Source: a virus (Duplodnaviria > Heunggongvirae > Uroviricota > Caudoviricetes). Taken from it: 16,256 nt of DNA. Positions 1 to 11,725 of this stretch are shown in pieces. The position numbers and the translations under genes are program-made. Position 1 is the stretch's first letter. Every line of letters begins with the position of its first letter. The notes under the pieces are model-generated. The model was given only the letters and a program-made list of their open reading frames with translations, was not told where the DNA came from and did no database searches. The DNA lies in the IMG/VR virus record IMGVR_UViG_2713896789_000020; one strand, 5' to 3'.

Positions 1-1284
1 TTACTTCTTCGCCTCTGCAACCACTTTACTACCCACGCCGCGGTTATTGTATTCCCACATGCGGTTGTAGTTAGTGTCATTCAGATTGCGCTGTATTTCG
101 TCGTTATCATCTACGCTGCCGGTATTACCCGCAAACGGACGATTAGAGATCACCGCATCGGCCCACGGTTTAGCCGTGTTAAAACCTTCGTTGATGGCGC
201 TATCACGGATCACCACCTGACCGTTGGTATTGGCATCAACATCCAGCGAGCGGCCCAGTTGCGCCACACCATCACCGAAAGCATTGAAACGGCTGTTTAC
301 GGCGAGGAAACCGTAGTAAATGTTGGACAGCGTAGCCGGTGCAAACACATACGCTTCTTGCTGAGTACGTGAGTTCACCACGCGGAATTCGGTGTTATCG
401 AACACCACTGCGCCGCGACCAGAAACGATATCCACATCCCCTTCAATGTAGCTGTTGGTCACCAGCGTACGCGGCTGACGATTTGTTTCCAGACGGTTCT
501 GCACACCGCTGTTGGTGACAAAGAAGGTGTTCTGACGACCGAGAATGTTAACGTTGTTAATCTGTACCTGGTCACCATCAGTACGCAGTGCCACCGCCGG
601 ATGGTTACCTGCATCTACGCTATCGCCCAGCGTGTTTTCGATGGTCAGATTTTGCAGTTGCAGGCCATTGTTTTGTGACCAGAAGACCGCAGAGCAGAGA
701 ACACCGATACTGTCGCTGCGTTTGCTCTGGCAGCTATCGTACATATACCACGCTGGTTTACCTGGCATATATTTGCCGCGCGGGTTGACGTCGTGACGCC
801 AGTCGGCAGGGCTCATGCCACCATCAAGGGAAAGCCCAATCTTCACATCAATCGGTTTTTCACCTGTACCGTACAGAGTAATTCCACCCGGAGCGGCAGG
901 GACATATACCGTTCCCTGATACTCACCAGGCATCACGGCAATATACTGGCGCTTGTTGGTACGCTTGATAATTGCCGCATCTACCGCCGCCTGAATCGTG
1001 GTATGCGTTACACCTTGAGTGCCCGCCGGGCCGACAACAAAGTCAGGTTGCGCAGGCAGGGTAATCGGGGAAGGATTCCACGCTGCAGCACCTGGTGTCA
1101 GGGATGCAAAATAGTGTTGAGCATCGAAATTCTGCGCTTCTTTTGCCGACAGAATCGGGCGAGAAGAGGTACCAGGCGCGGTTTGATCAGAAGGACGTTG
1201 ATCGGGCGGGGTTGAGCTACAGGCGGTCAGCGTCACGCCAAAAGCCAATGCCAGCGCCAGACGGGAAACTGAAAATGTGTTCAC
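1..1284 (-). CDS. ybhC: YbhC-like outer-membrane lipoprotein (pectinesterase / carbohydrate-esterase family); host gene flanking attB-lambda
   Basis: Complete 427-aa ORF with lipoprotein-type signal peptide (…LTACSS); recognised from the translation as the E. coli gene adjacent to the lambda attachment site; identity from recall, not searched. Confidence 0.85.
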   Translation of the reverse strand: MNTFSVSRLALALAFGVTLTACSSTPPDQRPSDQTAPGTSSRPILSAKEAQNFDAQHYFASLTPGAAAWNPSPITLPAQPDFVVGPAGTQGVTHTTIQAAVDAAIIKRTNKRQYIAVMPGEYQGTVYVPAAPGGITLYGTGEKPIDVKIGLSLDGGMSPADWRHDVNPRGKYMPGKPAWYMYDSCQSKRSDSIGVLCSAVFWSQNNGLQLQNLTIENTLGDSVDAGNHPAVALRTDGDQVQINNVNILGRQNTFFVTNSGVQNRLETNRQPRTLVTNSYIEGDVDIVSGRGAVVFDNTEFRVVNSRTQQEAYVFAPATLSNIYYGFLAVNSRFNAFGDGVAQLGRSLDVDANTNGQVVIRDSAINEGFNTAKPWADAVISNRPFAGNTGSVDDNDEIQRNLNDTNYNRMWEYNNRGVGSKVVAEAKK

Positions 1285-1322: not shown

Positions 1323-1425
1323 TGAAGCCTGCTTTTTTATACTAAGTTGGCATTATAAAAAAGCATTGCTTATCAATTTGTTGCAACGAACAGGTCACTA
1401 TCAGTCAAAATAAAATCATTATTTG
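1323..1425. other. attL: attL (B-O-P'): lambda att core GCTTTTTTATACTAA at 1331-1345, followed by P' arm with IHF-like site (about 1366-1378, tatcaatttgttg) and three arm-type Int sites (about 1392-1421, aggtcactat / cagtcaaaat / aaaatcatta)
   Basis: Exact 15-bp lambda core seen directly; downstream arm matches lambda P' arm as recalled; int stop codon lies inside the P' arm as in lambda. Confidence 0.88.
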
Positions 1426-5228: not shown

Positions 5229-5382
5229 TTCGAACCTCTCTGTTTACTGATAAGTTCCAGATCCTCCTGGCAACTTGCACAAGTCCGACAACCCTGAACG
5301 GCCAGGCGTCTTCGTTCATCTATNNNNNNNNNNNNNNNNNNNNNNNNNNNNNNNNNNNNNNNNNNNNNNNNNNNNNNNNNNN
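5225..5382 (-). CDS. TraR/DksA-type C4 zinc-finger protein (lambda orf73-like); 5' part hidden by the N-run, so the start is undefined
   Basis: C-terminal readable portion …IDERRRLAVQGCRTCASCQEDLELISKQRGSK carries the second CxxC of a TraR-like zinc finger; upstream part masked by Ns at 5324-5382. Confidence 0.6.
5324..5382. other. Run of 59 N (masked or unresolved assembly gap)
   Basis: Literal n characters in the sequence. Confidence 1.
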
Positions 5383-5950: not shown

Positions 5951-6105
5951 ACAGCCCCTCGTTTATTATTTATCTCCTCAGCCAGCCGCTGTGCTTTCAG
6001 TGGATTTCGGATAACAGAAAGGCCGGGAAATACCCAGCCTCGCTTTGTAACGGAGTAGACGAAAGTGATTGCGCCTACCCGGATATTATCGTGAGGATGC
6101 GTCAT
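5923..6105 (-). CDS. Small hypothetical protein, 60 aa (lambda orf60a-like), start overlapping exo stop
   Basis: [29 protein letters not shown]…; ATG at 6105 immediately follows the exo stop (6102-6104). Confidence 0.55.
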
Positions 6106-6743
6106 CGCCATTGCTCCCCAAATACAAAACCAATTTCAGCCAGTGCCTCGTCCATTTTTTCGATGAACACCGGCACCATCTCGTCAAAACTCGCCATGTA
6201 CTTTTCATCCCGCTCAACCACGACATAATGCAGTCCTTCACGCTTCATACGCGGGTCATAGTTGGCAAAGTACCAGGCATCTTTTCGTGTCACCCACATG
6301 CTGTACTGCACCTGGGCCATGTAAGCCGACTTTATGGCCTCGAAACCACCGAGCCGGAACTTCATGAAATCCCGGGAGGTAAACGGGCATTTCAGCTCAA
6401 GGCCATTGCCGTCACTGCATAAACCATCGGGAGAGCAGGCGGTGCGCATACTTTCGTCGCGATAGATGATCGGGGATTCAGTAACATTCACGCCGGAAGT
6501 GAATTCAAACAGGGTTCTGGCGTCGTTCTCGTACTGTTTTCCCCATGCCAGCGCCTTAGCATTAACTTCCGGAGCCACACCGGTGCAAACCTCAGCCAGC
6601 AGGGTGTGGAAGTAGGACATTTTCATGTCAGGCCACTTCTTTCCTGAGCGGGGCTTGGCTATCACGTTGTGAACTTCTGAAGCGGTGATGACGCCGAGCC
6701 GTAATTTGTGCCATGCATCATCCCCCTGTTCGACAGCTCTCAC
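6102..6743 (-). CDS. exo: Lambda exonuclease (Red-alpha), 5'-truncated: lacks the native first ~13 codons and ATG; the frame upstream reads …NHPICVT before a stop, resembling a Bet fragment
   Basis: 213 aa from an internal GTG match lambda Exo from residue ~14 to the C-terminus (…GFVFGEQWR); in-frame stop at 6783-6785 upstream; no ATG. Confidence 0.9.
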
Positions 6744-6932
6744 GTCGATCCCGGTAACGCAGATCGGATGATTACCGGTTCGCTACCAGGGAAGAACGGG
6801 AAGGAAAGGTGAGCACGAATCTGATTTTCAAGGAGTGTCGCCAGAGTGCCGCGATGAAGCGGGTGTTGGCATTTTATCGCGGCAATTTTCAATAGACTAT
6901 GTACATAAAAATATCATTTTTTTAATACATGT

Positions 6933-7139
6933 CTAATTATTGGACGAAATTGGTTTTTGCTTTGGTTTAGTTAGCCTAGCAATCAAGCCAGAGGCAATAA
7001 TGATGATCCAAGCAATTTGATGCAATGCTACTCCAATATAAGAACCTTTATAGATAATAAAGGCATAGATCGCTAGAAACGAAATAAATATCCATAACGA
7101 AAGTTGATAAATTTTGGCGCGCATATTTAATCCAATCAA
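6933..7139 (-). CDS. Small putative inner-membrane protein, 68 aa, two predicted TM helices; AT-rich, unknown function
   Basis: MIGLNMRAKIYQLSLWIFISFLAIYAFIIYKGSYIGVALHQIAWIIIIASGLIARLTKPKQKPISSNN; hydrophobic stretches and basic C-terminus; divergent from the lipoprotein operon. Confidence 0.45.
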   Translation of the reverse strand: MIGLNMRAKIYQLSLWIFISFLAIYAFIIYKGSYIGVALHQIAWIIIIASGLIARLTKPKQKPISSNN

Positions 7140-7380
7140 TCAGAAAGACGAGTAATCATAGAGGTACTATCACCCGGGTAACTATTGCTATTATGAACGG
7201 ATAGGATAGAGGCTTCAATAACATATGCATCAAGTATGATGGAATATGTAGGTGAAAATGACTTGTGTCAAATTTGTGGAAATGAGTACCATGTTTCTCT
7301 GAAATTGATGTCGTTAATGGCTAGTGATAGTGAACTTTTTTACTTTATAATTCCTTTGGTTATAACAATAAGGTAAATTT

Positions 7381-7941
7381 ATGAAGAAGATAATATTATT
7401 AGCCATGATTATTGGTTCTTTAACAGGTTGCGCTAGTGTGCCACCATTGAATTTTTCAACACCTAACGTGGGAGTTAGCCAGAAAAAAATAGATGCTGAA
7501 ATTAAGTCATTAACGGTATCACTTGCTCGTCCAGATGAGCAGAAAGGGGATATCACTGCTGGTATGGAGGCTATAACTCCAATTTGGCGTGAATCTTTGC
7601 AGGAAGCACTCGACCGAATGACTATTTTTCGTGATAGTTCACCAAATACGGTTAGCTTAAATGTTAAAGTGTTGGCTCTTGACGTTCCTGCTTTTGGTGT
7701 TTCAATGACAACTAAAGCAATTGCAAGGTATGAAATAATCAACCGTGCGAATGGTGATATTATATATACGCAGGATATTGAGTCTACCGGTACTGTTCCA
7801 GCCAGTTACGCATTCTACGGTATTGTTCGAGCACGCGAATCTGTTAATCGCGCGGTGCAAAACAACATAACGCAGTTCTTGCAAGCATTAGAAAGTGTTG
7901 ATCTTTCTCGTCCAATGTTTCCTGTTAGGGTAGCTAAATGA
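7381..7941 (+). CDS. Lipoprotein of unknown function, 186 aa (lipobox LTGC)
   Basis: MKKIILLAMIIGSLTGCASV… signal peptide plus lipobox; AAGGT Shine-Dalgarno; stop overlaps the next gene start (ATGA at 7938-7941); AT-rich. Confidence 0.8.
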   Translation: MKKIILLAMIIGSLTGCASVPPLNFSTPNVGVSQKKIDAEIKSLTVSLARPDEQKGDITAGMEAITPIWRESLQEALDRMTIFRDSSPNTVSLNVKVLALDVPAFGVSMTTKAIARYEIINRANGDIIYTQDIESTGTVPASYAFYGIVRARESVNRAVQNNITQFLQALESVDLSRPMFPVRVAK

Positions 7942-8390
7942 AGCGATTATTCGTAATTGCTCCACTCTTAGTGTTGGTTGGATGCGCACAAAATATATCG
8001 CCAAATAGTTATTCTGTTGGCTCTGTGGGCATGGTTAATCGAACTATCGCTGGTACAGTTATTAGTGCTAGGGGGGTTGATATCAGTGGGACTTCCGCGT
8101 TAGGCGGGACTGCTGGGGCTGCCGTGGGGGCAACCGCTGGTTCTGCGCTTGGTGGGGGAGTTCGTTCTAATATCGTTGGTGCCGTTGGTGGTGCAGTCAT
8201 TGGTGGTATTGCCGGGGCAGCAATCGAATCTTCAGCAACAAAACAAACAGGCATGGAATATGTTGTCGAAACTGAGAATGGGAATTTAATGACCATTGTT
8301 CAAGGCAAAGATCCGTTATTTACTCAAGGAAGTAAGGTCCTTGTTTTATACGGAAACCCTTCTCGCATAATAACAGACCCGCGTCACTAA
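7938..8390 (+). CDS. SlyB-like outer-membrane lipoprotein with glycine-zipper domain, 150 aa (lipobox LVGC)
   Basis: Signal peptide plus lipobox, then Gly/Ala zipper region (GGTAGAAVGATAGSALGGGVRSNIVGAVGGAVIGGIAGAAI) and a C-terminal module resembling SlyB/Pcp (…MEYVVETENGNLMTIVQGKDPLFTQGSKVLVLYGNPSRI); from recall of SlyB. Confidence 0.85.
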   Translation: MKRLFVIAPLLVLVGCAQNISPNSYSVGSVGMVNRTIAGTVISARGVDISGTSALGGTAGAAVGATAGSALGGGVRSNIVGAVGGAVIGGIAGAAIESSATKQTGMEYVVETENGNLMTIVQGKDPLFTQGSKVLVLYGNPSRIITDPRH

Positions 8391-10642: not shown

Positions 10643-11725
10643 TTAGAACTGGTAAACCATACCTACAGCAACGATATCATCGGTAGCAACGCCAGATGCT
10701 TTCGTGAAATCGCTCTTATCAATCAGGTTGATTTTGTAATCAACAAAAGTGGACATATTTTTGTTGAAGTAATAGGTTGCACCTACATCAATATATTCAA
10801 CCAGGTCCTGATCACCCCACGCACCCAAGTCTTTTCCTTTAGATTGCAGGTAAGCAACGGACGGACGCAGACCGAAGTCGAACTGATATTGTGCAACTAC
10901 TTCGAAGTTTTGTGCTTTGTTGGCAATATGGTTATTACCAAAAACAGTCATGTTCTGGGTTTCAGAATAGGTGGTAGCCAGATAGATGTTGTTCGCATCA
11001 TATTTCAGACCAGCTGCCCATACTTCAGCATTTTGACCAGATGCATTCAGGCTGTTGTTACCGTAGATAACCTGATTATTAGTGCGGTCAGATTTAGCAT
11101 AGGTTGCACCTACACCGAATCCTTCATACTCATAAGTAGTGGAGAAACCGAAACCATCACCATTAGCTTCAGTTACGTCAGTGCGGTCATTTTTACCCTG
11201 ATACTGAGCAGCAAAGTTCAGACCATCAACCAGACCAAAGAAGTCATTGTTACGATAAGTTGCAACACCTGTGGTGCGACCAGTCATGAATACATCTGTT
11301 TGGGTCCAGGTATCGCCACCGAATTCTGGCAGAACGTCGGTCCATGCACCAATATCGTATGCTACACCGTAGTTACGGCCATAATCGATGGAGCCGTAGT
11401 CACCGAATTTCAGGCCAGCGAAGGCAAGACGGGTTTTATCTTTGGAGGAACCTTGAGATTCAGCGCGGTTGCCTTTGAATTCATATTCCCACTGACCGAA
11501 ACCAGTCAGTTGATCGTTGATTTGGGTTTCACCTTTGAAGCCAAGACGGGCATAAGTAGTATCACCATCATCTGCATCATTAGAGGAGAAGTAGTGCTTA
11601 GCATTAACTTTCCCGTACAGATCCAGCTTGTTACTGTCTTTATTATAAATTTCAGCTGCCTGAGCAGACATCGCCATCAGTACTGATGCAGCTACAGCAG
11701 AAATTGCCACTGTTAATTTTTTCAT
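10643..11725 (-). CDS. nmpC: Prophage-encoded general porin of the OmpC/OmpF/PhoE family (NmpC/Lc-like), 360 aa, apparently intact
   Basis: Signal peptide [23 protein letters not shown]; porin signature regions (LDLYGKV…, …[14 protein letters not shown]…), C-terminal …VAVGMVYQF; position between Q and the lysis genes as in DLP12/PA-2. Confidence 0.93.

Follow-up and report, generated by a model that had tools for sequence, protein, structure and literature searches.

The closest described parallel to the locus reported here is DLP12 of Escherichia coli K-12, a prophage that has lost its immunity and replication module, so that what is left of a Red gene faces, head to head, what is left of a replication-region gene. 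The K-12 scar consists of exoD'-peaD'-renD (b0539, b4508, b0542), in which exoD' is 264 bp long and peaD' is a remnant of P. Its junction joins exo, at about codon 139, to P through the dinucleotide TA (...GGGAGGTA/AACG with ...GGTTTA/CGAG; here and below a slash marks the join). In the EC931 variant of DLP12, exo is split by IS1, and a 222-bp bet remnant is connected through CTG to a 345-bp P remnant. Since this variant keeps exo together with a bet'::P' junction, the K-12 scar is itself a secondary enlargement of an older one. Site-specific deletion hot spots, for their part, are known at arrested replication forks and at enzyme cleavage sites (terB/Tus, gyrase and topoisomerase sites). Deletions between short repeats can arise by slippage, by alternative end joining or by MMBIR, and microhomology models of the MMBIR type have been reviewed (PMC2621351).

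The DNA analysed here (16,256 bp, hereafter referred to as the window) is part of a DLP12-like cryptic lambdoid prophage of ~21 kb, inserted at attB-lambda. The left flank of the prophage is ybhC (1-1284, minus strand). Adjoining it is the attL core GCTTTTTTATACTAA (1331-1345, plus strand), an exact match to the lambda att core, for which 0 chance matches are expected. In the identical genome of NCTC9087, an attR core with one mismatch is found beside ybhB, which gives the size of ~21 kb. The integrase gene int (1419-2489) and the excisionase gene xis (2467-2685), both on the minus strand and both annotated in RefSeq, are intact, each with 98.6% identity to its lambda counterpart over the full length. 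They are followed by a b-region with several pseudogenes, then by the exo remnant, the ren remnant and an AT-rich cargo segment. The right part of the window is DLP12-like, with ybcN, ninE, ybcO, rusA, ylcG, quuD, a porin gene, essD, rrrD and rzpD. According to the RefSeq annotation of the identical NCTC9087 sequence, the window ends, after rzpD, with bor, ybcV, ybcW, ylcI and nohD.

DLP12 thus shares with the window the gene order from ylcH/ybcN through quuD, the porin gene, essD/rrrD/rzpD, bor and nohD, as well as the loss of the immunity and replication module. It differs in its attachment site and integrase (argU and IntD, against attB-lambda and a lambda-type Int in the window), and in the cargo that follows ren (emrE-ybcK-ybcL-ybcM, against two lipoprotein genes). 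The porin gene (nmpC/ompC-like; 10643-11725, minus strand, 360 aa), which is disrupted by IS5 in K-12, is intact here. In the region of a TraR/DksA-like gene, positions 5324-5382 are 59 consecutive N; as the identical NCTC9087 sequence exceeds the window by 77 bp in total, these N take the place of ~136 bp of real sequence. Rfam and tRNA scans found no RNA genes in the window.

An earlier, sequence-only reading of this DNA had claimed that N, cI, cro, O and P are absent between exo and the nin genes. This is borne out. In a tblastn search with 36 lambda proteins, gam, kil, cIII, N, rexAB, cI, cro, cII, O and P gave no match in the window, and the RefSeq annotation of NCTC9087 contains no repressor or replication gene, either in the window or in the remaining prophage out to attR. 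By these two approaches, no intact repressor or replication module is present elsewhere in the prophage. To the right of the window in NCTC9087, the large-terminase gene is cut short and runs into the remnant of a tail-fibre gene; next come a tail-fibre assembly gene and, before attR, an AraC-family regulator and IS remnants. This fusion of terminase and tail sequence means that the entire block of head and tail genes has been lost as well, as in DLP12. The element therefore shows what is expected of a cryptic lambdoid prophage: it is bounded by att cores with int and xis adjacent, and it keeps the nin, Q and lysis regions but has lost immunity, replication and morphogenesis.

From established lambda biology, such an element should be incapable of making repressor, of replicating or of being induced, since it possesses no repressor, no N, no pL or pR promoters, no origin and no O or P. 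Likewise, int, xis and the att cores are intact, but the normal promoters and the cII activator should be lost to them. The scar is an ordinary one, closely paralleled by that of DLP12, and represents another case of a temperate phage locked into the chromosome.

Three gene remnants meet at 6752-6775, namely codons 10-226 of exo on the minus strand, 19-24 bp of bet, and the last 40 codons of ren on the plus strand. The exo remnant, including its stop codon, occupies 6102-6756. Residues 10-226 of lambda Exo align to the minus strand from 6755 to 6105 by tblastn, with 98.2% identity and four substitutions. The earlier reading had correctly recognised that exo lost its start, but had placed the beginning of the match at about residue 14, with 13 codons replaced. 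The homology in fact begins at T10, and what is missing is the native ATG with codons 1-9. The bet fragment (6757-6775, minus strand) encodes codons 114-120, NHPICVT, and is identical to bet of lambda and of EC416; 14 bp of it are unique to bet, while 5 bp are common to bet and ren. That this heptapeptide derives from an internal segment of Bet had been proposed in the earlier reading, and it does match residues 114-120 of lambda Bet exactly (7/7, at 6773 to 6753 by tblastn). Taken alone, a match of this length has an E-value of only 0.29; I accept it because in sister genomes these 19-24 bp run on into a 447-bp bet remnant.

The ren remnant (6773-6895, plus strand) spans codons 58-97 and the stop, and is identical to the 3' end of the intact ren genes of strain 38 and TUM1887. 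Residues 58-92 of lambda Ren align to 6773-6877 with 91% identity (tblastn, E=7e-19), and RefSeq describes 6773-6895 as a pseudogene, 'protein ren, missing N-terminus'. A full-length ren open reading frame would be about 96-97 aa, and codons 58-97 alone are left. This changes part of the earlier picture. The minus-strand stop at 6783-6785, noted there, is indeed a TAG, but it is simply the antisense reading of ren. The sequence beyond it is not unrelated, as had been supposed, and the scar does not lead directly into the membrane-protein and lipoprotein genes, since 123 bp of ren lie between; unrelated sequence starts only after 6895. As for the claim that everything from bet to ren is missing, it stands for the immunity and replication genes, whereas ren is truncated, not absent.

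Alignment of the scar to lambda and to sister genomes mapped the two junctions at 6752-6756 and 6771-6775, 19 bp apart. Junction 2 (exo::bet', 6752-6756) was resolved by a three-way alignment of the window, the EC416 allele and lambda. The exo side reads ...GATCCCGGTA/CGCTGCAGG, the bet side reads ...CCACTCGGTA/ACGCAGATCGG, and one copy of CGGTA is retained. In lambda, the two CGGTA repeats lie at 31998-32002 and 32450-32454, 452 bp apart, with a microhomology of 5. Junction 1 (bet'::ren', 6771-6775) was resolved by alignment of the window, lambda and strain 38. Here the bet side reads ...GGATGATTAC/GGTCC, the ren side reads ...GGTGTATTAC/CGGTTCGC, beginning with CGG, and one copy of ATTAC is retained. 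The corresponding lambda repeats, at 32469-32473 and 40449-40453, are 7,980 bp apart. Of 200,000 random deletions generated by simulation, only 0.56% had junctions with microhomology of at least 5 bp. At both junctions, then, short direct repeats flank the lost segment and a single copy is left, as in deletions by slippage, alternative end joining or MMBIR, and the microhomology-mediated origin proposed in the earlier reading is supported for each of them. The sequences at the two junctions, CCGGTAA (6751-6757) and TTACCGG (6772-6778), are also exact inverted copies of each other over 7 bp, with a 14-nt spacer.

The double scar is found in one piece in 6 of 5,426 complete E. coli genomes (RM10410, FDAARGOS_1248, 200112, NCTC9100, NCTC9087 and E423), and in contigs from many samples, the sequence being indexed in 198 blocks. 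Of these contigs, 24 were read, and the six places inspected all carry the junction. Its presence in so many separate assemblies makes an assembly error at the scar unlikely. Junction 1 has a wider distribution, and is common to 24 of the 5,426 genomes. Seven of these (EC416, PEC1009, MS 124-1, NCTC9040, NCTC9104, 1332KP and VG48B2) carry an intermediate allele, in which an intact exo of 681 bp and a 447-bp bet' are fused to the identical 123-bp ren remnant. A further 11 genomes combine junction 1 with other secondary deletions. Between the window and intermediate alleles, the flanks are 99.9-100% identical over 16 kb, and the sequences are identical over 457 nt to the left of junction 2. In the intermediate allele, the inverted repeat noted above is 6 bp long (CGGTAA...TTACCG).

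Seen in isolation, the window would be compatible with one deletion from the start of exo to ren, the junctions being within 24 bp of each other and the stray bet fragment having been picked up on the way. This is also close to what the earlier reading had proposed, namely one bet-to-ren deletion that included the exo start. The sister alleles make it very improbable: seven genomes, in otherwise 99.9-100% identical prophages, possess an intact exo and 447 bp of bet at the identical ren junction, and four more pair the bet::ren junction with a different exo deletion. The bet::ren junction must therefore be older than the loss of the exo start. Given that the intermediate allele has an intact exo and the same bet'::ren' junction, the immunity deletion came first and the 452-bp deletion later, and the latter is, judging from these alignments, a recent secondary event. 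The direction from intermediate to window allele follows from parsimony, as a gene cannot be rebuilt by chance. It is conceivable that a window allele reverted to the intermediate one through recombination with a donor carrying the intermediate allele.

An undeleted relative was identified at the same site in TUM1887, with 98.8% identity. There, exo and bet are followed by gam, a 207-bp gene, genes for an S24-peptidase repressor, a cro-like regulator, a YdaT-domain protein and a replication protein of 339 aa, and then by P, ren, the same pair of lipoprotein genes and the nin region. The ATTAC sites are 5,036 bp apart in this prophage, and the CGGTA sites 452 bp apart. The size of 5,036 bp and the list of lost genes are to be read as estimates, TUM1887 being a 98.8% identical stand-in for the real ancestor. 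Strain 38 carries a different primary scar, in which ACCA links a bet remnant of 561 bp to a P remnant of 231 bp, while ren is intact.

The reading that I favour, with a probability of about 0.9, is that a DLP12-like prophage with a lambda-type integrase, at attB-lambda, underwent two deletions one after the other, both RecA-independent and mediated by microhomology. In the first, which the shared junctions show, the prophage lost the segment between one ATTAC at bet codon 113/114 and another at ren codon 57/58. Going by the closest undeleted relative, this cost it gam, a kil-like gene, the repressor with its S24-peptidase domain, the cro-like regulator, a YdaT-like gene, the replication genes (O-like and P) together with the origin, and the 5' parts of both bet and ren, as well as the leftward and rightward early promoters. 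In the second, shown by comparison with the intermediate allele, 452 bp between CGGTA in exo (codons 9-11) and CGGTA in the bet remnant were lost, and with them the exo ATG, the first nine codons and the translational coupling to bet. DLP12 offers an independent version of the same course: in both prophages the present scar enlarges an older one (bet'::P' in DLP12, bet'::ren' in the window), but the DLP12 join from exo to P is a different one from those of the window, which connect exo codon 10 to bet codon 120 and bet codon 114 to ren codon 58. Together, the alleles provide a clean, datable series of prophage erosion, from an intact relative through a primary scar to three different secondary deletions.

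The exo remnant deserves attention on its own, since RefSeq presents it as a normal protein (WP_032269513.1, 220 aa, 6102-6764) with a non-canonical ATC start. The exo of the icd prophage, described below, receives similar treatment and is listed as an ordinary protein despite its truncation. The remnant possesses a YqaJ-family domain (Pfam PF09588, E=4.8e-30), the segment around D119/E129/K131 is unchanged, and the frame is uninterrupted over 217 codons with only four substitutions relative to lambda. On the minus strand, a weak promoter-like match is found at 6935-6908, and an open reading frame of 68 aa lies upstream, with no terminator predicted between it and the remnant. On these grounds, one may consider a working gene, producing an exonuclease of 213-220 aa from the GTG at codon 14 or from a rare start, to the benefit of the host. 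Low-level read-through into the remnant, from the promoter-like site or from the 68-aa frame, is indeed possible. However, the remnant is incomplete and lacks a start codon of its own. In frame, translation could begin only at the GTG at 6743 (codon 14, 213 aa) or at the annotated ATC at 6764, no ATG being present until codon 53, and the native start has been lost along with pL and the coupling to bet. Bet, the partner protein, is absent, exo is entirely deleted in sister lineages, and the same lineage is still eroding nearby DNA. The open frame also says little about selection, as the alleles are 99.9-100% identical and the deletion is too recent for such a test. I therefore consider a working gene improbable, and a functional exo product unlikely from these features. 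The remnant is more likely a pseudogene than the ordinary protein it is annotated to be, and the sequence is most likely that of an unexpressed or poorly expressed pseudogene which has kept an uninterrupted 217-codon frame and a catalytic core.

The cargo between ren and ybcN (6933-8390) is AT-rich. It comprises the 68-aa open reading frame mentioned above (6933-7139, minus strand), which is membrane-like and hydrophobic, is unannotated in RefSeq and points towards the exo remnant, and two co-oriented lipoprotein genes (7381-8390, plus strand) in a moron position between ren and ybcN. The first of these encodes a protein of 186 aa (7381-7941), labelled YajG-family in some records, and the second a 150-aa glycine-zipper lipoprotein (7938-8390) with a weak match to a glycine-zipper Pfam family. 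Neither has a Pfam match above threshold or an NCBIfam match. Promoter-like sites are found upstream of the 68-aa frame, a 63-aa version of which is called by gene callers on Logan contigs. Since the same cargo genes follow an intact ren in TUM1887, the cargo predates the deletion and was not brought in by it.

The exo side of junction 2 is a recurrent breakpoint, hereafter referred to as X. It lies in exo at CCCGGT/ACGCTGCAGG, corresponding to lambda 32001/32002, 27 nt into a lambda-type exo. Eight junction types that arose independently have it in common; their prophages sit at attB-lambda, icd and argU, among other sites, and X is used in both directions. In the window allele (6752-6756), exo codons 10-226 are joined to bet codon 120. 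Elsewhere, the same codons are joined to the 3' part of O, in an icd prophage with a different integrase (23 genomes and a metagenome contig), to the 3' part of an MT-A70 methylase gene, to about codon 62 of gam (protein P0001), and to ybcN, in DLP12 at argU (XJ34). A metagenome contig has bet codons 1-113 joined in frame to exo codon 10 (protein P0005). Two types use the opposite side of X. In A14, FORC_081, CM2010-0578/1 and NCTC9041, all of which keep bet'::ren', exo codons 1-9 are kept and joined to a 216-bp hypothetical gene (...CGCCGTTTA/CGCTGCAGG), the deletion having removed exo codons 10-226, orf60a, orf63 and most of the 216-bp gene. In 23CRST021, of the window's lineage, a larger deletion leads to an Ea22-like gene (...ATCGATGGT/ACGCTGCAGG), and from the pattern of coverage six more genomes probably share it.

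The microhomology at the X junctions is 2-5 nt long and always abuts X. Every one of them is compatible with a crossover at GT/AC, between T and A, or just before TA, and many of the partner sites read GGTA/A, GGTA also preceding the join at X. A pattern scan of IMG/VR recovered seven junction contigs of three types at X, and none at four control positions in exo; in reading this comparison, it should be kept in mind that only four controls were used and that the X events were gathered by mixed routes. The bet codon 113/114 site (GATGAT-TA-CGG, 6771-6775) has likewise been used twice independently, junction 1 of the window retaining the bet 3' side of it and the P0005 junction the other side.

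Left of X, the exo haplotypes differ between junction types, the nearest discriminating SNPs being 36 and 93 nt from X, which argues against simple inheritance of a truncated exo end. For the same reason, and because the window is identical to its own intermediate allele, the passing of X between prophages by homologous recombination was rejected, although very short conversion tracts may have played a part. GGTA as a generally recurrent site was also considered and discarded, as the other GGTA junction in exo, at the K-12 DLP12 site, gave a single junction type.

Endpoints without constraint and without a preferred site would be the pattern for a purely microhomology-driven deletion, and the exo endpoint does recur. 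The recurrence of one endpoint at the same nucleotide in many independent events is not predicted by slippage, alternative end joining or MMBIR, and argues against purely random slippage for deletion 2. It could instead be that the secondary deletion started from a site-specific break or recombination at X, the other end being set by 2-5 nt of terminal microhomology; a nuclease or topoisomerase could have nicked the DNA or broken both strands, or the cut could have been made around TA by a recombinase or transposase. The eight independent junction types, the empty control positions, the differing haplotypes, the abutting microhomology and the frequency of TA at other junctions (see below) all point this way. 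Against it, the scans turned up no agent, no significant hairpin, no insertion or mosaic boundary in 187 phage records and no contig with a mobile element at X. The controls are few and the routes mixed, as stated, and the 5-bp repeat alone suffices for the deletion seen in the window. The chances of a site-specific origin of this kind I put at slightly below even.

X resembles the hot spots known from arrested forks and enzyme cleavage sites in having one fixed endpoint, varying partners and short terminal homology at the join. It is unlike them in that no Ter-like, gyrase-consensus or other recognisable site was identified in it, and in being used in both directions. No symmetric motif or identifiable enzyme was found for X, and a comparison by eye with restriction-enzyme, Chi, dif/Xer and lambda Int core sequences, IS5 and IS608 targets, and gyrase and topoisomerase I preferences showed no convincing match. 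When segments of 80-100 nt around X, the bet::ren junction and the partner site in the hypothetical gene were folded as DNA, their z-scores ranged from -0.4 to 0.5, so that a hairpin or cruciform was set aside; a weak CCGG(T)AC...GTCCGG stem alone spans X. A homing-endonuclease gene, an insert or a mosaic boundary at X was dismissed on the grounds that all 187 phage records (187/187) span the 301-bp bet/exo junction unbroken. A mobile element was rejected as well: apart from a single SNP, all that pattern scans detected in IMG/VR and the JGI metagenomes were deletion junctions, and the scan of species-representative genomes gave no hit. The IS1 copy of EC931 sits in the middle of exo, away from X, which speaks against a role for IS1.

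A more committed proposal is that X is a genuine fragile or recombinogenic site, opened repeatedly by a sequence-directed activity (a nuclease, a topoisomerase, a TA-cutting recombinase or transposase, or an arrested fork), the fixed end then being joined wherever 2-5 nt of terminal homology would occur. I regard this as doubtful, and propose it only tentatively. The fixed end, the varied partners, the short terminal homology and the bidirectional use around the self-complementary GTAC would fit a site-specific nick or double-strand break followed by microhomology-primed joining, and would equally suit an enzyme making a staggered cut around TA. Were it true, E. coli prophages would owe the decay of their Red and immunity modules in part to a specific mechanism and not to random slippage, which would help to explain the stereotyped loss of recombination and immunity modules by prophages. 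A fragile or enzyme-targeted position in exo, a lambda Red gene in wide use, would also open a way to study how illegitimate recombination works in enterobacteria. I found no description of this exo hot spot in the literature, and the recurrent breakpoint is the only part of these results that a specialist might find surprising.

The preference for TA extends beyond X. At five of the eight non-X junctions, TA is found inside the microhomology, against a base rate of 6.1% among random junctions with at least 2 nt of microhomology (P about 4e-5), and this broader excess of TA and GGTA junctions fits the notion of a fragile site. Other deletion sites have also been reused in the lineage. In Logan/ENA contigs with the window's allele, GGAAGTA/AGCG served twice, in two different b-region deletions, and ...ACGAGTA(TCG) was used twice, 3 nt apart. 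In RM10410, ~2.1 kb of the b-region is gone and ninE has an internal stop. Other contigs of the lineage show four further b-region deletions, one of which extends from orf60a into int.
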